Positions 3,222 through 47,328 of a DNA stretch of 64,000 bases are shown one piece after another; the stretch's first letter is position 1; each line of letters begins with the position of its first letter. The stretch covers positions 72,320-136,319 of the forward strand of contig DAISJM010000001.1 in the NCBI GenBank assembly GCA_036821485.1, written 5' to 3'. Under the pieces are notes generated by a model that was given only the letters and a program-made list of their open reading frames with translations, had not been told where the DNA came from and did not search any database. The stretch is from Verrucomicrobiota bacterium. Lineage in GTDB: Bacteria; Verrucomicrobiota; Kiritimatiellia; CAIQIC01; JAGNIJ01. Position numbers and translations under genes: made by a program.

Positions 3222-3626
3222 TTGAGAAAGATACTCTCTGTCGATGATGATCCCAACGTACTCAGGGCTTTCCAAACCACGCTGAAGCAGAAGGGGTACG
3301 AGGTATTCATCACCACCAACCCGAATGAGGCGGCGGACATTCTGGCGGCCCACGAGATCGATCTCATCATGCTCGACATCCGCATGCCGGAGAAGAACGG
3401 GTTCGAGATCTTTGCCGAAGTGAAGAAGAAGTACAGCAAGCTGCCCGTGCTGTTTGTCACCGCGTATCCAAAGTCCTTCACCATGCGATCGAGCGAAATG
3501 GTGCGCATGTGGGAGGAGGATTTTGCGGATGGCCAGACCGACATCCTGTACAAGCCTTTCACGATAGATTCGCTTTACGAAAAGGTCGAAGGACTGATTG
3601 GCAAGGCCGACGAATTACCGTCATGA
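3222..3626 (+). CDS. Stand-alone response-regulator receiver (CheY-like) protein
   Basis: TTG start six nt after the AAGGAGGA RBS. Receiver motifs are present: SVDDDP, IDLIMLDIRMP (phospho-Asp), LPVLFVTAY and ILYKPF. Confidence 0.8.
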   Translation: MRKILSVDDDPNVLRAFQTTLKQKGYEVFITTNPNEAADILAAHEIDLIMLDIRMPEKNGFEIFAEVKKKYSKLPVLFVTAYPKSFTMRSSEMVRMWEEDFADGQTDILYKPFTIDSLYEKVEGLIGKADELPS

Positions 3627-3997
3627 ACCTTTCGCCATTGGAGAGGATCGAGCTGTATCGGCAGGCGCGCATCGTCCTGGTGCGGCACCTGATCGATCTC
3701 GGCCGCGTGACGATCCAGGTGGCGGCCAGCCACCTGCATTTGCGTGGCGAAATGGTCCGTTTGCCCGGCGTCACGGCGAAGCTGACCCCGGACGTGATGC
3801 AGGCCATCATGGCCGAGCTTGGCCGCATCCCCGGCGTGCGCCGCGCTTCAGCGGAACTCAGCAATTGGACGACTGACAACGGCGGCGGTTGGCAGCCGGT
3901 CGAAGCCGCCAAGCATGGGGGCAGCGACGTCTTCATCGACCCGACCCCGCAGACTTTCGATCTCGGGAAGCCGAAGGATCCTGATCCGCCCAAGTAA
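3623..3997 (+). CDS. Hypothetical protein translationally coupled to the response regulator
   Basis: ATG at 3623 overlaps the receiver stop (ATGA). ~124 aa with no recognised domain (MNLSPLERIELYRQARIVLVRHLIDLGRV...). Confidence 0.5.
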   Translation: MNLSPLERIELYRQARIVLVRHLIDLGRVTIQVAASHLHLRGEMVRLPGVTAKLTPDVMQAIMAELGRIPGVRRASAELSNWTTDNGGGWQPVEAAKHGGSDVFIDPTPQTFDLGKPKDPDPPK

Positions 3998-4110
3998 GCC
4001 GCGTAAGACAGCGCCTTTGGGCCGTATTGACGGCCCGGAACCCCCGGCGTACTCTGATTTCCGCATTTCGGTCGTGTTTCGCACGGCCGCGACGCAAGGA
4101 GAATGCATCG

Positions 4111-5598
4111 ATGAGGAAAATCATCACGTCCATCCGGAAAGACGTTGTTGCCAAGAGTATCCAGCGGGCCAGGGAGCGTAAGGTCATTCTCCCGCAATTT
4201 GCGCAGCAGAAGGATCCTTCGAAGATTCCGGCGAAGATCGTGGACAAACTGAAAGGCATCGGTCTTTGGGACATCAACCCCCTGAACCTTTTCCGCATCA
4301 CATGGAAGAACGAGGCGACCCCCAAGGGCGGCGGTTTCAACGAGGGCAACTGGATTGAATTCCCGTCCGAACTGACCGGGGTGGATGCGAAGATCGTCGG
4401 CATCTCCGGCAAGTGGTTCCCGACCGGTGCGCACAAGGTCGGCGCCGCCTACGGCTGCCTCGTGCCGCGCCTTGTGTCCGGCAATTTCGATCCCACCACG
4501 CAGAAGGCCGTCTGGCCATCCACCGGCAACTACTGCCGCGGCGGCGCCTATGACTGCGCCTTGTTGGGCTGCCCCGCCGTGGCGATCCTGCCCGAGGGCA
4601 TGAGCCAGGAACGATTCACATGGCTGAAGTCCATCGGCACCGATGAAATCATCGCCACGCCGGGCACCGAGTCCAATGTGAAAGAGATTTACGACAAGTG
4701 CTGGGAACTGCGTCGTGACCGTGGCGACAAGATCGTCATCTTCAACCAGTTCGAGGAATTTGGCAATTCGGTCTGGCACTACCAGATGACCGGCGGTGTG
4801 ATCGAAGAGCTGTTCGAGAAACACTTCAAGCCGTCCGGCAAGCGCCTCTCCGGCTACATCAGTGCGACCGGCTCGGCAGGAACGATCGCCGCGGGCGATT
4901 TCCTCCGCACGAAACACCCGGCCCTTCGCGTGGTGGCTACCGAGGCGCTGCAGTGTCCGACGCTCTACCAGTTCGGATTTGGCGCGCACCGCATTGAAGG
5001 CATCGGCGACAAGCACGTACCGTGGATTCACAACGTGCGCAACACCGACGCTGTGGCGGCCATCGACGACGAGCAAGTGATGCAGCTTCTGCGCCTCTTC
5101 AACGAGCCTGCGGGTCAGAAGTATCTCGAGCAGCGGGGTGTCAAGAAGGCGGTGATTGATCGCCTGCCCTGGCTTGGGATATCCTGTATCTGCAACCTCG
5201 TGGCGGCGATCAAGACGGCGAAGTTCTTCGACATGGATTCGCGTGACGTGCTCTTCACGCCGCTCACCGACTCCATGGAACTGTACGCCTCGCGCCAGAA
5301 GGAGATGACCGAGCAGCACGGGAAGTACGACGAACTCAAGGCTGCCTCGCACTTTGCGCGGTACCTGGAAGGCACGTCGGTGGACTTCTACCGCGAGCTG
5401 ACCTACTTCGACCGCAAGGCGCTGCACCAGTTCAAGTACTTCACCTGGGTCGAGCAGCAGGGCAAGAGCTCTGAAGATCTGCGGGAGCTGTGGGATGAAG
5501 ACTTCTGGAAGGAACTCTTCGCCGACGAACAGGTGAAGGAATGGGATAAGCTCATCGCCGAGTTCAACGACGCGGCGGGTGTGCTGAAGCAGCTGTGA
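4111..5598 (+). CDS. PLP-dependent fold-type II enzyme (cysteine synthase/CBS family-like) with a long C-terminal extension
   Basis: ATG at 4111 after the AAGGAGA RBS. ..FPTGAHKVGAAYG.. is a candidate PLP-Lys region, and STGNYCRGGAYDCALLGCPAVAILPEGMSQERFTWLKSIGTDEI resembles CysK. The product is ~495 aa. Confidence 0.65.
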   Translation: MRKIITSIRKDVVAKSIQRARERKVILPQFAQQKDPSKIPAKIVDKLKGIGLWDINPLNLFRITWKNEATPKGGGFNEGNWIEFPSELTGVDAKIVGISGKWFPTGAHKVGAAYGCLVPRLVSGNFDPTTQKAVWPSTGNYCRGGAYDCALLGCPAVAILPEGMSQERFTWLKSIGTDEIIATPGTESNVKEIYDKCWELRRDRGDKIVIFNQFEEFGNSVWHYQMTGGVIEELFEKHFKPSGKRLSGYISATGSAGTIAAGDFLRTKHPALRVVATEALQCPTLYQFGFGAHRIEGIGDKHVPWIHNVRNTDAVAAIDDEQVMQLLRLFNEPAGQKYLEQRGVKKAVIDRLPWLGISCICNLVAAIKTAKFFDMDSRDVLFTPLTDSMELYASRQKEMTEQHGKYDELKAASHFARYLEGTSVDFYRELTYFDRKALHQFKYFTWVEQQGKSSEDLRELWDEDFWKELFADEQVKEWDKLIAEFNDAAGVLKQL

Positions 5599-5649
5599 TT
5601 TTTCCAACCCTTGGAAAAGACGCAGCACGATTTTCCAAGGGTTGGAAAC
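5598..5649. repeat. Palindromic element copy A (TTTTCCAACCCTTGGAAAA-N12-TTTTCCAAGGGTTGGAAA)
   Basis: A 19-bp arm and its exact reverse complement, separated by 12 nt. It starts at the stop codon of the upstream PLP gene and ends 14 nt before the ygeY RBS. Related copies lie at 19064-19117 and 47278-47328. Confidence 0.8.
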
Positions 5650-5663
5650 TTTAGGAGGACTCC

Positions 5664-6857
5664 GTGAAAAATAAGTTCTACGAACTGGCAAAGAAGAATG
5701 AAAAGGCCCTGGTCCAGTTCATGGCCGACATTGTATCGATTCCCTCACTGAGCAGCCAGGAAGGCGCCGTCGTCAAACGCATGGCCGATGAGATGAAGAA
5801 GCTCGGCTACGACGAAGTGACGATCGACGGCATGGGGAACCTGATCGGCCGCATCGGCAACGGCCCCATCAAGATTGCGTTCGACGGGCACTGCGACACG
5901 GTCGACGTGGGCAACGCCTCGCTGTGGAAGAAGAAACCCTATCCGGCCACGATTGAGAACGGGATTCTCTACGGGCGCGGCGCGAGCGATCAGAAGGGCG
6001 GCGTGGCGTCGTCGATTTACTGCGCGCCGCTGCTCAAGGAGGCCGGCCTGCCGAAGAACGTGTCCGTCTACGTTGTCGCTTCGGTGCAAGAGGAAGACTG
6101 CGACGGCCTTTGCTGGCAGTACATCGTCAAGGAACACAAGCTGAAGCCCGACGTGGTGTGTTTGACCGAGCCGACCAGTCTCCGGATCTATCGCGGGCAT
6201 CGCGGCCGCATGGAGATCGAGGTTGCGACGTCTGGCATCTCGTGCCACGGCTCTGCGCCCGAGCGCGGCGTGAACGCGGTCTATAAGATGGCGCCGATCA
6301 TCAAGGATATCGAACAGCTCAACGAACGGCTTCAGCCGCGCGCGCCGCTGGGGAAGGGGACGGTCACGATCAGTCACATCCGTTCCACGTCGCCCAGCCT
6401 TTGCGCGGTCGCCGATGGGTGTACCATTCATCTCGATCGCCGGCTCACCGTTGGCGAAACGGAAGAGACCTCGGTGAAGGAGTTGTACGATCTGCCGTCC
6501 GTCAAGGCGGCGGGCGCAAAGGTCACCGTGCTGGATTACGCAGTACCCAGTTGGAAAGGGCTGACGTACCCGACGAAGAAATACTATCCGACGTGGGAGT
6601 TCCCCGAATCGTCACCGCACGTGCAAAAGGCGATTGCCGGTTACGAGGCGACGTTCGGACAGAAGCCGGAGGTCGGCCACTGGACCTTCAGCACCAACGG
6701 CATCGCGACCGCGGGGATGTTCGGCATTCCGTCGCTGGGCTTCGGCCCGGGTCATGAGAAGTTCGCGCATTTTCCGGACGAGCAGATCGAAATTGAGCAT
6801 CTCGTTCGAGCTGCGGCATTCTACGCGGGCTTTGTTTCCGCGTTCGGCGAGCGCTGA
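5664..6857 (+). CDS. ygeY: YgeY-family M20 peptidase/hydrolase (selenium-metabolism-linked hydrolase family)
   Basis: 397 aa. N-terminus MKNKFYELAKKNEKALVQFMADIVSIPSLSSQEG; HCDTVDVG, GASDQKGG and HGSAPERGVNAV match the ArgE/DapE M20 fold. RBS TTAGGAGGAC. Confidence 0.85.
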   Translation: MKNKFYELAKKNEKALVQFMADIVSIPSLSSQEGAVVKRMADEMKKLGYDEVTIDGMGNLIGRIGNGPIKIAFDGHCDTVDVGNASLWKKKPYPATIENGILYGRGASDQKGGVASSIYCAPLLKEAGLPKNVSVYVVASVQEEDCDGLCWQYIVKEHKLKPDVVCLTEPTSLRIYRGHRGRMEIEVATSGISCHGSAPERGVNAVYKMAPIIKDIEQLNERLQPRAPLGKGTVTISHIRSTSPSLCAVADGCTIHLDRRLTVGETEETSVKELYDLPSVKAAGAKVTVLDYAVPSWKGLTYPTKKYYPTWEFPESSPHVQKAIAGYEATFGQKPEVGHWTFSTNGIATAGMFGIPSLGFGPGHEKFAHFPDEQIEIEHLVRAAAFYAGFVSAFGER

Positions 6858-16928: not shown

Positions 16929-18428
16929 TCACTTCCCACCTGCCTTTGCCGCGTTGCCGGCGTATGCACACGCTGCGGCGTTGCTCGGCATCACGATGGC
17001 TCCAGCAGCCTTCAGGGCTTTGACCACCCGTGAACGATTCTGCGGGTCGCCGTCGGTGCCGGTGACCGAACATACCACCGGAACTTTGCGCGAGGCCGTG
17101 CGGATCACCGGTGCAAGTTCCGCGGCCGGGTCCATGTTCGAGCCGTAACCGAGTACGACGTCCAGCAGGATCACGGCAGTCTCGGGATCAGCCGCCTCCG
17201 CCAGAATCCGTTTGTTGCGTAACGAGAAGTCGATCATCGGATGCGGTCGGCCGACGGTAAACTCGTCCTCGCCCAGATCGACGAACGAGTGCTTCTGGCT
17301 CTTCAACGAATCCTTGAGCCGCTTCGTCCTGCCGGTCGGCGCGTTGGAGTAGAGTTGGCCGAGCGTGTCCTCGAGAATGATTTGCGCTTCTGCGCAGAAC
17401 GTTCCGCCGCTGAACAAGCCCCGGACGTATTTGCGGCGGCCGCGGGCGCGCCGCGGCCGGCTCTGAGATCCGACCCTATCTTGAAGGTCTTCAATCTTGC
17501 GGCCTGTCGCGAGCGCAACTGCTTGCAGCGCAGCCTCTTCCAGCGTCTTTGGTCCGTCTCCTTCCGCGCCGAGAAGTAGCGAGACAACGGGCTTACGGAT
17601 GCGGCGCACTTCACGGCGGACGCGGTTCAGCACGCTGGGGTGGGGCGGTTTGGAGACGAGCAGGATGACCTTCGTCTGCGGGTCGGCGGCGAGCGCCTTC
17701 AGGCCGGCGAGGAACATGATGCCGCCGACTTCCTTCTTTACGTCGCGCCCGCCCGTGCCGATTGCCTGTGAAATACCGGAGCCTTCGTTGGAGATGATGG
17801 TGCTGACTTCCTGGAGTCCGGTTCCGGCGGCGGCGACGATGCCGATCGGGCCGCGGCGAACCACGTTGGCGAAGGCGAGCGGGATGCCGTTGATGATCGC
17901 CGTGCCGCAGTCGGGACCCATGACGAGCAATCCCTTCTTTGCCGCGAACTTCTTGAGTTCGATTTCCTTCTCGATCGGCACGTTGTCGGAAAAGAGCATG
18001 ACGTGCAGGCCCTTCTCAAGACAGCGCATCGCGAGCGAGCCGGCATAACGACCGGCGACGGAGATCAACGCGAGGTTCGCGCCCGGCAGAACCTTCACGG
18101 CGCCGTCGAGATCAGACGGGAGCGTTTCACCGGAGGAAGTCCCGACGGCCGCGGCCTTGCTCTTGAGCGCGGCCTCGGCTGCGTTCAAAGCGGCCTCGGC
18201 TGTCTTGGCATCGCGCGCCTTCACGGCCAGCAGCAGGTCGGTATCGGTTGCCTTGGCAAAATCGGAGATCAGCAGGCCGGACGCCTTGAGGATGCCGAGG
18301 TTCGACTTCGTGCCCATGACAAGCGCGGCTTCGGCGACGCCGTCCGTGCCGGCAATGCTTTTGCCTACGCGCATCAGCGAGACGGAATCGTGGTAGGCGC
18401 CCTTTTTGATTCTGCCGAGGGTAATCAT
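16929..18428 (-). CDS. fdrA: FdrA-family protein (acyl-CoA synthetase/succinyl-CoA-synthetase-alpha-like)
   Basis: 499 aa. MITLGRIKKGAYHDSVSLMRV is a typical FdrA N-terminus, followed by CoA-binding and ATP-grasp-like regions. Confidence 0.85.
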   Translation of the reverse strand: MITLGRIKKGAYHDSVSLMRVGKSIAGTDGVAEAALVMGTKSNLGILKASGLLISDFAKATDTDLLLAVKARDAKTAEAALNAAEAALKSKAAAVGTSSGETLPSDLDGAVKVLPGANLALISVAGRYAGSLAMRCLEKGLHVMLFSDNVPIEKEIELKKFAAKKGLLVMGPDCGTAIINGIPLAFANVVRRGPIGIVAAAGTGLQEVSTIISNEGSGISQAIGTGGRDVKKEVGGIMFLAGLKALAADPQTKVILLVSKPPHPSVLNRVRREVRRIRKPVVSLLLGAEGDGPKTLEEAALQAVALATGRKIEDLQDRVGSQSRPRRARGRRKYVRGLFSGGTFCAEAQIILEDTLGQLYSNAPTGRTKRLKDSLKSQKHSFVDLGEDEFTVGRPHPMIDFSLRNKRILAEAADPETAVILLDVVLGYGSNMDPAAELAPVIRTASRKVPVVCSVTGTDGDPQNRSRVVKALKAAGAIVMPSNAAACAYAGNAAKAGGK

Positions 18429-19420
18429 TTTCGAGCCTTTGTTTTGAGGTTCCCCGTGGGTTCACCCCACGGGGGCCAGAATTCTGCCTCCTGCCGGTCA
18501 AGCCGGCAGGGAGGCAGGAGCATGGAGGCTCCCCGTGGGTTGACCCCACGGGAGCCAGAATTCTGCCTCCTGCCGCGCAAGGTGGCAGGGAGGCTCTTCA
18601 ACATCAACACGAACCCTGCGGTGAGGTCGGCGCCCGACGTTTCGCCGAGGGCAAGTACGCGACGGCCGCAGGAACGAACTTCGCGCGCGCTGCCGTGAAG
18701 CAGCGCGCCGATCAGGTTCTTCATCGGTTCAGCGACGAATCCGTCGCGGGCGAGGCCGAGAAAATGGGCGGAGAGCCGATGCCGAGTCCTCGCTGCAGCG
18801 TGGATCGTGGCAATCGCGCGGGAGTAATCGGTGTTTGTCAGGTTTCCTGCGAGATGCAGGGCCATCATTGCGCCTGCGAGGAAATCGTCGCCGCCCGGTG
18901 TCAGGCCAAAGCCACAACCGGCGAGGAGACGGCTCCCGCGCGCGAGCCGGCGCGGGTTGTTTAATCCGTCGAGCATGTCCTTCGCGCCCGCACGAATGCG
19001 CCGCGCAAACTGGCGGGAGAGCAAATCGGGCCCGGGCGCAGCGTGGGGGTCGAGCAGGAGCAAAAAGTTCCAAGGGTTGGAAAACTGGGGTACCCATTTT
19101 TCCAAGGATTTGAAATTTCGTGCGAAGCGCCGGCCGGGTACCTCATCGCGCGCGAGGTCGGAGCGATAGACCGGAGTCCGGCGGATGACGTGGCGGCGAT
19201 CGGAGAGGGTGACTGAACCGCGGCGGATGATCAGGCGTGGCGCGGCGCCGCAGAAGTCGCGCGCGGAACCTGCGACGACAAGGTTGGCCGGGCCAGCGCC
19301 GATCTCGGCGCTGACGACGGACACAAGGCGGCCGCCGCGGACGAAATTCACGGCACGATCAAAGCGGGAGTGAACGCAATACGTTCCTTCCCGCACTCTG
19401 TCGCCGATACTCAGCAGCAT
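18425..19420 (-). CDS. DUF2877 protein (YlbF homolog) carrying in-frame repeat-derived sequence
   Basis: GFGLTPGGDDFLAGAMMAL is the DUF2877 motif. The ORF is 331 aa against ~270 typical. The last ~60 codons are read from a tandem palindromic repeat, and codons ~101-118 from a TTCCAA palindromic element. Confidence 0.6.
   Translation of the reverse strand: MLLSIGDRVREGTYCVHSRFDRAVNFVRGGRLVSVVSAEIGAGPANLVVAGSARDFCGAAPRLIIRRGSVTLSDRRHVIRRTPVYRSDLARDEVPGRRFARNFKSLEKWVPQFSNPWNFLLLLDPHAAPGPDLLSRQFARRIRAGAKDMLDGLNNPRRLARGSRLLAGCGFGLTPGGDDFLAGAMMALHLAGNLTNTDYSRAIATIHAAARTRHRLSAHFLGLARDGFVAEPMKNLIGALLHGSAREVRSCGRRVLALGETSGADLTAGFVLMLKSLPATLRGRRQNSGSRGVNPRGASMLLPPCRLDRQEAEFWPPWGEPTGNLKTKARK
18449..18597. 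repeat. Two tandem ~78-bp units, each built of three palindromes
   Basis: The units are >90% identical: CCCCGTGGG-TTSAC-CCCACGGG, CAGAATTCTG and CCTCCTGCCGG-N-CCGGCAGGGAGG. They lie at the 3' end of the DUF2877 ORF, just upstream of the fdrA start. Confidence 0.8.
19064..19117. repeat. Palindromic element copy C (TTCCAAGGGTTGGAA-N12-TTCCAAGGATTTGAA), in-frame inside the DUF2877 gene
   Basis: Same family as 5598-5649 and 47278-47328, with the second half degenerate. It is 54 bp (18 codons) and translates as KSLEKWVPQFSNPWNFLL. Confidence 0.7.
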
Positions 19421-33200: not shown

Positions 33201-34478
33201 ATGAATTTCAAGGGCTTCAAATGTTTTTCCTGCGGCGCGGAGCAATCCGCCTCGTTTGCCGGCTATGTCTGTCCCGCCTGCGAGGGCAACATCGAAGTCA
33301 CGTACGACTACGCGGCGCTCGCGAGCGACGCGCGGGCGCTGCACAAGACGGCGGCCGGGCGGAACGATATTTTCCGTTACGCGCGATTGCTGCCGGTTAC
33401 ACGATTGGATCTCGCGTCTCCTCTGCGGGTGGGTATGACGCCGCTTTACCGGGCCGACCGCCTTGGCGCCGCCGCGGGGTTGAAGAATCTCTACCTGAAA
33501 GATGACGGTCTGAATCCGAGCGCTTCGTTCAAGGATCGGGCTGGTGCCGTCGCGCTTGTACGGGCGCGTGAGACGGGCGCCAAGGTGATTGCCGGTGCGA
33601 GCACAGGCAATGCGGGCAGTTCCATGGCATGCCTCGCGGCCAGCGTCGGCGTGCCCTGTGTCATCTTCGTTCCCGAGAAGGCCCCAGCGGCCAAGATTGC
33701 GCAGCTCCTCGTGTTTGGGGCGAAAGTACTCGCCGTGCGCGGCACCTATGATGATGCCTTCGAGCTTTGCATGAAGGTTTGTGCGGAACGCGACTGGTTC
33801 AACCGCAACACGGGTCTGAATCCTTTCACGCGCGAAGGGAAGAAGACCTGCAGTTTCGAGATCTGCGAGCAGTTGGAATGGAGCGCTCCGGATAGGGTGG
33901 TGGTGCCCACGGGCGACGGAAACATCATCAGCGGCATTTGGAAGGGGATGCGCGATCTGCATGCGGTGGGCTTGATCGATCGCCTGCCGAAAATCGATTG
34001 TGCGCAATCGGAGCGGAGTGCGGCAATCGTCGGAACGATTGCGAAACTGGAAACTGGAGATTCGAAATTGGGCGGGGTGGATTGGAGCTGCGTTGAAGTG
34101 GAGATGGTTCAGGCGACGACTATCGCGGATTCCATCTCGGTCGACGTGCCGCGCGATGGGCTGGCGGCTGTTCGTGCGGTGGTGGAGTCGGGTGGTGAAG
34201 CGGTAACTGTTTCCGACGAAGACATCCTGGCTGCAATTCCGGAACTGGCGCGTGGGGCGGGCGTGTTTGCCGAGCCGGCCGCGGCCTGTGCCTGGGCCTG
34301 CACGAAGAAGCTGGCGCGCGAGGGGAAGATCAAGCCCGACGAGCGCGTGGTGTGCCTGATCACCGGCAACGGGCTGAAGGATGTCGCCAGTGCGCGCAAA
34401 GCGGCGGGCGAGCCCGTGGTGATCGATCCGACGCCCGAGGCGGCCTCCGCGGCATTGCACCACCTCGGCGTGAAATAG
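33201..34478 (+). CDS. Threonine-synthase-family PLP enzyme with N-terminal Zn-ribbon (possible YgeX-position analog)
   Basis: N-terminal CFSCG...CPACEG ribbon. SASFKDRAGAVAL is the PLP-Lys and GNAGSSMA the glycine loop. ~425 aa. An alternative ATG lies at 33192. Confidence 0.7.
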   Translation: MNFKGFKCFSCGAEQSASFAGYVCPACEGNIEVTYDYAALASDARALHKTAAGRNDIFRYARLLPVTRLDLASPLRVGMTPLYRADRLGAAAGLKNLYLKDDGLNPSASFKDRAGAVALVRARETGAKVIAGASTGNAGSSMACLAASVGVPCVIFVPEKAPAAKIAQLLVFGAKVLAVRGTYDDAFELCMKVCAERDWFNRNTGLNPFTREGKKTCSFEICEQLEWSAPDRVVVPTGDGNIISGIWKGMRDLHAVGLIDRLPKIDCAQSERSAAIVGTIAKLETGDSKLGGVDWSCVEVEMVQATTIADSISVDVPRDGLAAVRAVVESGGEAVTVSDEDILAAIPELARGAGVFAEPAAACAWACTKKLAREGKIKPDERVVCLITGNGLKDVASARKAAGEPVVIDPTPEAASAALHHLGVK

Positions 34479-34554
34479 GATGGGTCGACAATAGAAAAGG
34501 AAAGGCCCCGCGTGAGCGGGGCCTTTCTCTTTGGGAATACAGTTTGATGACGAT

Positions 34555-47277: not shown

Positions 47278-47328
47278 ATTTTCCAACCCTTGGAAAATCG
47301 AGCGCTATTTTTTCCAAGGGTTGGAAAA
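47278..47328. repeat. Palindromic element copy B (TTTTCCAACCCTTGGAAAA-N12-TTTTCCAAGGGTTGGAAAAA) between convergent rlmN and the antiporter gene
   Basis: The arms are identical to copy A (5598-5649); only the 12-nt spacer differs. Confidence 0.8.

Follow-up and report, generated by a model that had tools for sequence, protein, structure and literature searches.

Helically phased palindromes of Kiritimatiellia-type genomes as candidate binding sites for a putative dimeric protein

Results

The DNA analyzed in this study, hereafter the window, is a stretch of 64,000 nucleotides from a Verrucomicrobiota bacterium (GenBank assembly GCA_036821485.1, contig DAISJM010000001.1, positions 72,320 to 136,319 of the forward strand). 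It contains three pairs of the palindrome TTCCAA-N3-TTGGAA, referred to as copies A, B and C, with center-to-center distances of 31, 31 and 32 bp, respectively. These copies are ordinary members of a wider palindrome family of Kiritimatiellia-type genomes, which is apparently undescribed. The unit of the family is the single palindrome, not the 50-bp hairpin of a pair, and neighboring units are two or, usually, three helical turns apart. From the motif, its phasing and its distribution, we infer binding by a protein, the oligomeric state of that protein and its biological role: the units would be sites at which a putative dimeric DNA-binding protein, specific to the lineage, binds cooperatively on one face of the helix, and its role would be architectural or that of a boundary. 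We give this proposal an even chance of being correct.

The palindromic unit and its helical phasing

The genomes of 185,579 species (one genome per species, 596 Gb) were scanned for exact pairs, which were two cores 12–20 nt apart with any central triplets, so that center distances of 27–35 bp were allowed. The scan identified at least 118 loci in at least 46 assemblies, while chance alone would produce about 0.02 matches to the pair pattern, with its 24 specified bases, in a search space of this size. The site, cluster and spacing statistics given in this study are from the loci listed. The logo of 466 sites with no more than one mismatch was wTTTCCAA-[T/G]-S-[A/C]-TTGGAAAw (w, A or T; S, G or C), with background beyond about 10 positions on either side of the center. 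Most sites matched all 12 specified bases, and the center base was G or C in 99% of all sites. Moreover, core positions 7 and 9 were usually complementary, which reduces the center to 1 nt. A center of 1 nt fits a dimer site, not a hairpin loop. Two types of flank were observed in the family, one with a T-run and an A-run (TTTTCCAA...TTGGAAAA) and the other with an A-run followed by S and S followed by a T-run (AAAAGTTCCAA...TTGGAACTTTT). In the metagenome-assembled genome (MAG) AM-2014_bin-1020, the palindrome was often lengthened to about 29 bp, CGCAAACTTCCAATSATTGGAAGTTTGCG (e.g., L025 2805–2890 and L104 1117–1180).

The 220 clusters consisted of 53 single units, 118 pairs and 30, 12, 3 and 4 clusters with three, four, five and six units, respectively. 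Neighboring units no more than 40 bp apart (n = 246) were at distances of 30–33 bp in 233 cases and of 21–22 bp in 12 cases, and no distance of 23–29 bp was found. Given that the search pattern allowed center distances of 27–35 bp, the peak at 31/32 bp is real; the 21/22-bp class was under-sampled by the requirement for a 12–20-nt spacer. Where consecutive sites were separated by gaps of 34–200 bp, 13 of the 16 gaps deviated from a multiple of 10.45 bp by no more than 1.6 bp (31% expected; binomial p ~4e-5), and 15 of the 16 had no recognizable site between (the best intermediate match had at least 4–5 mismatches). Thus, the spacing by two or three turns is kept across longer gaps, suggesting cooperative assembly on the same face of the helix.

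The original prediction had described a 50-bp palindromic element made of two inverted arms and a short spacer. As a selected feature, this hairpin was not supported. The central triplets of neighboring units were direct in 70 cases, inverted in 47 and neither in 69, so complementary triplets were no more common than expected by chance. The "loops" between arms were only 2–3 or 12–13 nt long, and U-tract-like flanks showed no bias for the direction of transcription. In view of the triplet counts, the exactly inverted arms seen in copies A and B are attributed to the CCC/GGG centers preferred in this genome and not to a trait of the family.

Copies in the window

In copy A, unit 1 (5599–5618) reads T-TTTTCCAA-CCC-TTGGAAAA, with its 15-bp core at 5602–5616 and arm 1, TTTTCCAACCCTTGGAAAA, at 5600–5618. 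It is followed by a 12-nt spacer, GACGCAGCACGA (5619–5630), which is unrelated to those in the other two copies, and by unit 2 (5631–5648), whose core is at 5633–5647 and whose arm 2, TTTTCCAAGGGTTGGAAA, corresponds to TTTTCCAA-GGG-TTGGAAA. Unit 1 begins 1 base past the TGA stop codon (5596–5598) of a pyridoxal phosphate-dependent YgeX-like gene. From the end of unit 2, 5 nt lead to the ribosome-binding site AGGAGGA (5654), which precedes the GTG start codon (5664) of an M20/YgeY-like gene. Copy B lies between convergent genes. Its unit 1 (47279–47297; TTTTCCAA-CCC-TTGGAAAA, core 47281–47295) is 21 nt past the stop codon of an rlmN-like gene (47258), and its unit 2 (47310–47328; TTTTCCAA-GGG-TTGGAAAA, core 47312–47326) is 22 nt before the stop codon of a convergent Na+/H+ exchanger gene (47351). 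The spacer of copy B is also 12 nt long and unrelated in sequence to those of the other copies. Copy C is carried in frame by allH, a DUF2877/YlbF-like open reading frame (ORF) on the minus strand (18425–19420). Its unit 1 (19068–19082) has the exact core TTCCAAGGGTTGGAA and encodes FSNPWNF on the coding (minus) strand, and its unit 2 (19100–19114), TTCCAAGGATTTGAA, has one mismatch to the core and encodes NFKSLEK. In the relatives L124 and L125, the core of unit 2 is perfect. The product of allH is identical to HPF98498.1, which is labeled "Kiritimatiellia bacterium."

The exact reverse-complement arms and differing spacers of copies A and B are as originally described, each arm is itself a palindrome, and the gene contexts given for the three copies agreed with the gene calls. 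For copy C, the pair is real, but its geometry is not inverted: its central triplets are non-complementary, making it a direct pair of palindromes. That the element is recurrent and non-random was borne out by a search with TTCCAANNNTTGGAA, which at no more than two mismatches gave 7 matches in the window and 1.3 ± 1.0 in shuffled sequences, none of 100 shuffles reaching 7. When degenerate pairs at 21, 22, 31 or 32 bp were sought, only copies A–C were found in the window, while 29 of 30 shuffles had none and one had a single pair. The sites in the window were perfect or near-perfect, and the search for degenerate pairs found no decayed ones. The 81-kb source contig (CAZGBH010000002.1 of MAG GCA_964523715.1, from anaerobic-digester metagenomes) contained only these three clusters, about 1 per 27 kb, and the 17 kb beyond the window added no copy. 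The family is nevertheless not confined to the window, being widespread in related genomes.

The first part of the window (1–25000) and the upstream sequence (L217 1–10000) contain a large cluster of genes for anaerobic catabolism of the purine/oxamate type. The cluster includes two sets of the xanthine dehydrogenase family (Fer2, FAD_binding_5 and MoCoBD), an adenine-deaminase-like amidohydrolase, YgeX-like and YgeY-like proteins, AllF, AllG and AllH, a cyclase, a thiolase with a ChsH2-like OB-fold protein, a CN hydrolase and a malonate-decarboxylase-alpha-like gene. A 710-residue spurious antisense ORF (3559–5691, minus strand) lies opposite the YgeX-like gene, and long spurious ORFs are common. 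Such ORFs are typical of a genome with 62% G+C, and ORF length alone is misleading here.

Distribution among genomes

Among the matches listed, all were from MAGs of the Planctomycetes-Verrucomicrobia-Chlamydiae (PVC) group. Where their labels were specific, they were Kiritimatiellia, Kiritimatiellales or Pontiella, and the remaining labels were "Lentisphaerae," "Verrucomicrobia" or "uncultured." The habitats of the listed MAGs were lakes, rumen, sediments and digesters. Neither an exact core nor a pair was found in a 650-kb control from other taxa, which was retrieved via the M20 gene. Scanning the whole window with Rfam 15 at the gathering score returned two tRNAs only and no family matching the motif. 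Scans of the array loci and copy A at a permissive E-value returned only generic, sub-threshold hairpin matches to miRNA models. No description of the motif was found in a full-text search of the literature. The family is best classified as a variant, either of dispersed palindromic repeats or of phased operator arrays.

The central triplet and the choice between 31-bp and 32-bp spacing differed by genome, and these preferences are referred to as dialects. For instance, the centers in AM-2014_bin-1020 were TSA in 89 of 90 sites and the spacing was 32 bp in 43 of 47 cases, while LaPlata bin-260 had GSC centers and 31-bp spacing, other genomes favored SSS centers with 31 bp and the window had CCC/GGG centers. 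Within a genome, the core was common but the spacers were not, as 43 pairs in one MAG had unrelated spacers. The copy number also varied, from 3 in the 81 kb of the source contig to many per 8-kb locus in some MAGs. Intragenic copy numbers, in particular, clearly vary strongly from genome to genome. In the MAGs JBFWJN01 and CAYYYX01, the motif was very dense within housekeeping genes. L102 600–4800 had 9 sites in about 4 kb, including those in aroB, and L116 2881–4008 had 5 sites inside rlmN.

Arrays were also found in a phage. The contig IMGVR_UViG_3300035698_006241 is a genuine tailed phage according to PHROGs, with a terminase large subunit, a portal, a head protease and a major head protein. 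The phage units, which were at L213 650–767 and 14358–14466 and at L211 3429–3505, formed one array of four units, one of three units and two additional singles. The contigs L208, L212 and L215 also bore typical units. In three viral contigs related to one another (L207 10093–10135, L209 5989–6031 and L210 5438–5480), the pattern was matched with 28-bp spacing and A/T-rich centers (TTCCAAATTTTGGAA), which appears to be a different, unrelated repeat.

Position relative to genes

Genes outside the window were called with a crude caller based on G+C content at third codon positions, which was checked on the window, where deposited gene calls were available for comparison. Clusters with at least two units were found at 35 convergent, 52 co-directional and 13 divergent junctions; about 25 further such clusters were truly intragenic and about 25 were in apparent 5′ ORF extensions. 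Convergent junctions were occupied in 22% of cases, co-directional ones in 11% and divergent ones in 7%. In AM-2014_bin-1020, 13 of 23 convergent, 10 of 68 co-directional and 3 of 24 divergent junctions were occupied. At co-directional junctions, the median distance from the stop codon to the unit was 45 nt, and many units began 1–20 nt past the stop codon. Many units were also found at the very start of ORFs encoding secreted proteins, either just ahead of the charged N-region of the signal peptide or inside it, such as MNINRSLRRFPSLGILALLIFQALETLAAP (L011 6496, L033 3837, L065 726, L122 809, L012 4083 and others). At some of these units, the TTG of TTGGAA could serve as a start codon, and gene callers are prone to mis-setting starts at such places.

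When 870 proteins predicted in the loci were clustered all against all, no family recurred beside the elements. According to Pfam, the genes at conserved element positions or beside arrays of at least four units had unrelated housekeeping or transport functions, and the neighbors included a phosphoribosyltransferase, a YggS-like protein, GH97, aroB, MreC, threonine synthase and transporters. The earlier view that the locations do not point to a single regulon thus held across the at least 118 loci, whose neighbors are functionally diverse. The position itself was sometimes conserved. The YgeX|YgeY junction had two units in the window and three in L131, in which the M20 protein was 77% identical and the synteny was the same, with other triplets and spacers. 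The homologous junctions of other taxa were 20–40 nt long, contained no motif and could not be aligned with the flanks in the window; these taxa, which made up most of the results of a metagenome search, lacked the motif anywhere. Units likewise occupied the same relative position in several further gene pairs that are orthologous between MAGs.

Copies inside genes

The pair in allH encodes RNFKSLEKWVPQFSNPWNF and lies over a conserved RN[LF]xx[LF]E...P..[LF]..LLD segment, and comparison of this region with 15 homologs, down to 33% identity, showed no change in length. In the allH genes of L124 and L125, both units were perfect and the motif region was nearly invariant, while the flanking DNA was markedly more divergent. 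Similarly, rlmN of L116 has "NLFQCLETL" in place of "AVCDSLEVL" of the RlmN encoded in the window and "FSQTLELLERHD" in place of "LDQLELVERHD"; two other sites in this gene adjoin lineage-specific insertions that are not of element size. In the alignment of the aroB product of L102 with solved dehydroquinate synthases, "FQCLEK" was opposite "FFEWQEK" and "FFDWLEA," and the L102 protein was shorter there, not longer. The peptides encoded by the in-frame motif were FQxLE, S[NK]xWK and FPxxGK. Of the FQxLE pentapeptides in the loci, 30 of 34 were encoded exactly by TTC CAA nnn TTG GAA, compared with 0.36 expected from codon usage. Given the nearly invariant motif in allH, the result of the codon test and the lack of net insertion, the constraint is on the nucleic acid, and the intragenic sites were made in situ by substitution.

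The allH product of the window also has a C-terminal tail of about 50 residues (PATLRGRRQNSGSRGVNPRG...KTKARK; 18425–18600, minus strand), which is absent from P0004, P0005 and distant AllH proteins and partial in P0003. With this tail, the allH ORF still overlaps the start of allF by 4 nt.

Discussion

The symmetric core of 15–19 bp, with half-sites one helical turn apart, a center of one G or C and conservation of sequence rather than of pairing, points to a symmetric dimer on duplex DNA. A putative dimer shared by Kiritimatiellia-type bacteria would read each unit through the half-sites TTCCAA and TTGGAA, about 9 bp apart in adjacent major grooves. With neighboring units two or usually three turns apart, bound dimers would lie on the same face of the helix and could bind cooperatively, as tetramers or longer assemblies, to arrays of up to six units. 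The sites are dispersed genome-wide at about one cluster per 5–30 kb, mainly past the 3′ ends of genes and between convergent genes and occasionally inside genes, where the encoded protein tolerates the codons. Such a genome-wide, regulon-free and 3′-end-biased distribution suggests an architectural or boundary role, and the candidates are a nucleoid-associated protein, an insulator of supercoils or transcription units and a roadblock, rather than gene-specific regulation. The dialects are signs of co-evolution with a putative reader protein, and the phage arrays are consistent with use of a host factor. In a more specific version, the phased arrays at the ends of transcription units would be orientation-independent boundaries, either roadblock terminators or supercoil insulators, formed by a putative abundant protein, with dialects in which its specificity and its hundreds of sites co-evolve and with arrays that phages copy. 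This version is considered improbable.

Similar arrangements are known from tandem operators and from sites that organize chromosomes. NrdR boxes are two 16-bp palindromes 31–32 bp apart. Lrp-type regulators recognize 15-bp semipalindromes with spacers of 15–17 bp (PMC10201364), and regulators of the IclR family bind as tetramers to tandem palindromes two, three or four turns apart (PMC8222616). The family has the same geometry: a 15-bp palindrome and a gap of 16–17 bp give 31–32 bp, with a minor class at 21–22 bp, so that boxes of about 15–16 bp are spaced by integral helical turns. Its sequence differs from the NrdR and Lrp consensus. Moreover, these regulators control defined promoters within a coherent regulon, whereas a genome with the family probably contains tens to hundreds of near-perfect sites, the majority of them at 3′ ends and others inside genes, with convergent junctions enriched, divergent junctions depleted and neighbors diverse. 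The chromosome-organizing sites parS (bound by ParB), the Noc site ATTTCCCGGGAAAT, the SlmA sites and matS (bound by MatP) are near-perfect palindromes read by dimeric helix-turn-helix proteins. Similar to the family, they are at least 13–16 bp long, scattered, tolerated in genes and conserved within lineages. However, they occur singly without phasing and are usually far fewer (about 10–70), and their sequences are unrelated to that of the family, except for a TTTCC...GGAAA flavor in common with the Noc site.

Several points weigh against a dimeric reader protein. Nothing encoded near the arrays points to a binding protein, either in the clustering of the 870 proteins or in the Pfam scans. 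The conservation is far tighter than is typical for sites of transcription factors or nucleoid proteins, and loading-site specificity, drive or copying would fit it equally well. Enrichment at convergent junctions and past stop codons together with depletion at divergent junctions is the classic distribution of repetitive extragenic palindromic (REP) sequences and terminators, and the bias may simply mark where extra sequence is tolerated. The predicted RNA folds of copies A and B are very stable (−31 and −32 kcal/mol; z of −6.5 and −5.5), and any two neighboring units can pair. A uniform triplet and spacing in each genome would also be expected from amplification of a master copy. Finally, the loci were ascertained by exact pairs and annotated with a crude gene caller, and the lineage restriction and per-genome counts rest on the matches listed, in fragmentary MAGs.

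The distribution past stop codons and between convergent genes bears on two other explanations. If transcribed, the units would fold, as one small hairpin each or as a long two-unit hairpin, and could serve in mRNA stabilization, processing or bidirectional termination, as do REPs of Escherichia coli. The stability of the folds of copies A and B, with −44 kcal/mol predicted for the L131 array, the units placed directly past stop codons and the enrichment at convergent junctions are in line with this explanation, as is a scan of the window for canonical terminators, which gave no more than shuffled sequences did (19 vs. 17.3, 12 vs. 15.9 and 6 vs. 10.7). The same scan, however, did not call copy B, and a canonical bidirectional terminator exists at another convergent junction (34500–34527), where a G+C-rich stem of 12 bp (GAAAGGCCCCGC/GCGGGGCCTTTC) is followed by a T-tract between genes that end at 34478 and 34555. 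Canonical terminators thus coexist with palindrome pairs in this genome. Across the at least 46 assemblies, the stems are kept by sequence without covariation, complementary triplets are not enriched, A-runs rather than U-runs follow the hairpins (U-tract-like flanks number 10 upstream and 11 downstream with respect to transcription), loops of 4–11 nt never occur while the long-range spacing tracks the helical repeat of DNA, and complementarity of positions 7 and 9 would have no purpose in a loop. An RNA function as the main explanation is therefore considered improbable. Alternatively, the units or pairs could be selfish elements that are copied by a transposase, either of the REP-associated tyrosine transposase (RAYT) type or another, and persist in permissive intergenic sites, similar to REPs, their hairpin-forming doublets (REPINs), bacterial interspersed mosaic elements (BIMEs) or miniature inverted-repeat transposable elements (MITEs). 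REP families are typically species-specific, and BIMEs bind gyrase and integration host factor and have been proposed as topological insulators. Similar to the REPs and BIMEs of Enterobacteria and Pseudomonas, the family consists of dispersed, RNA-foldable palindromes at about one cluster per 10–20 kb that occur as singles, pairs and regular clusters, mostly past the ends of coding regions and at co-directional or convergent junctions (PMC3733652), with triplet and spacing homogeneous within a genome and copy number unequal between genomes (3 per 81 kb vs. many per 8-kb locus). The defining feature of REPs is an imperfect stem-loop tagged at one end with GTAG or CGTC (PMC3733652), but the 466-site logo is perfectly symmetric and has no such tag. 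Unlike REPs, the family has the same 12-base core across a whole class, in at least 46 assemblies from lakes, rumen, sediments and digesters, and its spacing is quantized by the helical repeat. Unrelated spacers within one genome indicate that pairs are not copies of a master, the intragenic copies in allH, rlmN and aroB were made by substitution without net insertion, and decayed copies are lacking in the window. No transposase family recurred beside the elements among the 870 proteins predicted from 8-kb fragments of the MAGs, in which no dedicated search for RAYTs was made, and inspection of copies A and B by eye, with no systematic check, revealed no target-site duplication. These results speak against the mobile element that the original prediction had favored along with a structural role, and we regard it as quite unlikely; a structural role and an operator for a tetrameric regulator, which it had also offered, were both reasonable.

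The intragenic copies and the position of copies A and C bear on two further explanations. The palindrome could act in a manner similar to an uptake signal or as a "drive" motif, a DNA receptor or the repair and recombination machinery favoring DNA that carries it and copies accumulating where they are tolerated. The uptake signal sequences (USS) of Haemophilus and the DNA uptake sequences (DUS) of Neisseria occur at about one copy per kb and are non-palindromic, while the cyanobacterial motif HIP1 is a palindrome. In common with these motifs, the family is over-represented genome-wide, has in-situ coding copies in preferred frames that yield the set peptides FQxLE, S[NK]xWK and FPxxGK, is divided into lineage dialects and is enriched in intergenic regions and at 3′ ends, near terminators in the case of the known motifs; its sites are also near-perfect, with few mismatched variants. 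However, the known motifs, at about 1 per kb, far exceed the family in density, and they are shorter (8–12 bp, the uptake signals being mostly single, evenly spread, non-palindromic 9–12-mers). The source contig, with 3 clusters per 81 kb or about 1 per 27 kb, lies one to two orders of magnitude below USS and DUS. Known uptake signals show nothing comparable to the strict pairing, the helical phasing or the arrays of up to six units, and a genuine phage genome bears arrays at a density at least equal to that of its hosts. This explanation is therefore very unlikely. A gene-specific operator for an IclR/AllR-like tetrameric regulator of the purine/allantoin-oxamate catabolic cluster would account for the presence in this one cluster of copies A (ygeX-ygeY) and C (allH-allF-allG) and for the units at the YgeX|YgeY junction of L131. 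The half-sites of IclR and AllR are TGGAA/TTCCA (PMC8222616), and those of the family equal the ones of E. coli AllR (TTGGAA...TTCCAA) and IclR (TGGAA...TTCCA) (PMC8222616). Their order, however, is everted: IclR and AllR operators have TGGAA-N5-TTCCA, while the unit is TTCCAA-N3-TTGGAA and the gap between units is 16–17 nt, or 6–7 nt in the minor class. Moreover, copy B is flanked by rlmN and an antiporter gene in convergent orientation, the neighbors across at least 118 loci are unrelated and include no recurring family, sites are depleted between divergent genes, and the Pfam annotations, which covered the called genes of most of the window and of the flanking sequence, included no domain of the IclR family. 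Such an operator is extremely doubtful.

Other candidates were tried and rejected. A promoter for an extracytoplasmic function (ECF) sigma factor, with GGAAC-N16-TCCAA across the pair, was judged by inspection and did not fit, as the outer half-sites are equally conserved and the arrays, the 21-bp spacing and the convergent gene ends are at odds with it. A CRISPR array, in which direct repeats of 23–47 bp alternate with unique spacers of about the same length in long arrays near cas genes, was rejected on account of a repeat of 15–19 bp, a spacer of 12–17 bp, 118 of 220 clusters with only two units and dispersed copies that are also coding in frame. A MITE in the strict sense was rejected because internal sequence is not common to the copies, either in the 43 pairs of one MAG or in the three spacers of the window. 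An intrinsic (Rho-independent) terminator was rejected because the stem of a unit has G-C pairs at 2 of its 8 positions and is followed by an A-run, with U-like flanks symmetric.

The motif is a sharp lineage marker, which could help to bin contigs and to assign phages to Kiritimatiellia hosts. For annotators, it calls for caution about spurious N-terminal ORF extensions and hairpin-like "miRNA" matches. The motif also strongly shapes these genomes: it forces specific codons and peptides (FQxLE, SNxWK and FPxxGK) into housekeeping enzymes and fills a large share of the convergent junctions in some genomes. If the units are indeed phased sites for a dimeric protein, the 12-base core and its spacing by two or three turns would provide a handle to fish out a major DNA-binding protein of a poorly studied PVC lineage, of which the cultured representatives Kiritimatiella and Pontiella exist. 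The dialects of triplet and of 31-bp or 32-bp spacing would then offer a system for studying how a protein and hundreds of sites shift specificity together. Such a protein would also raise the question of whether bacteria could bound transcription units or topological domains by protein arrays and not by RNA hairpins.

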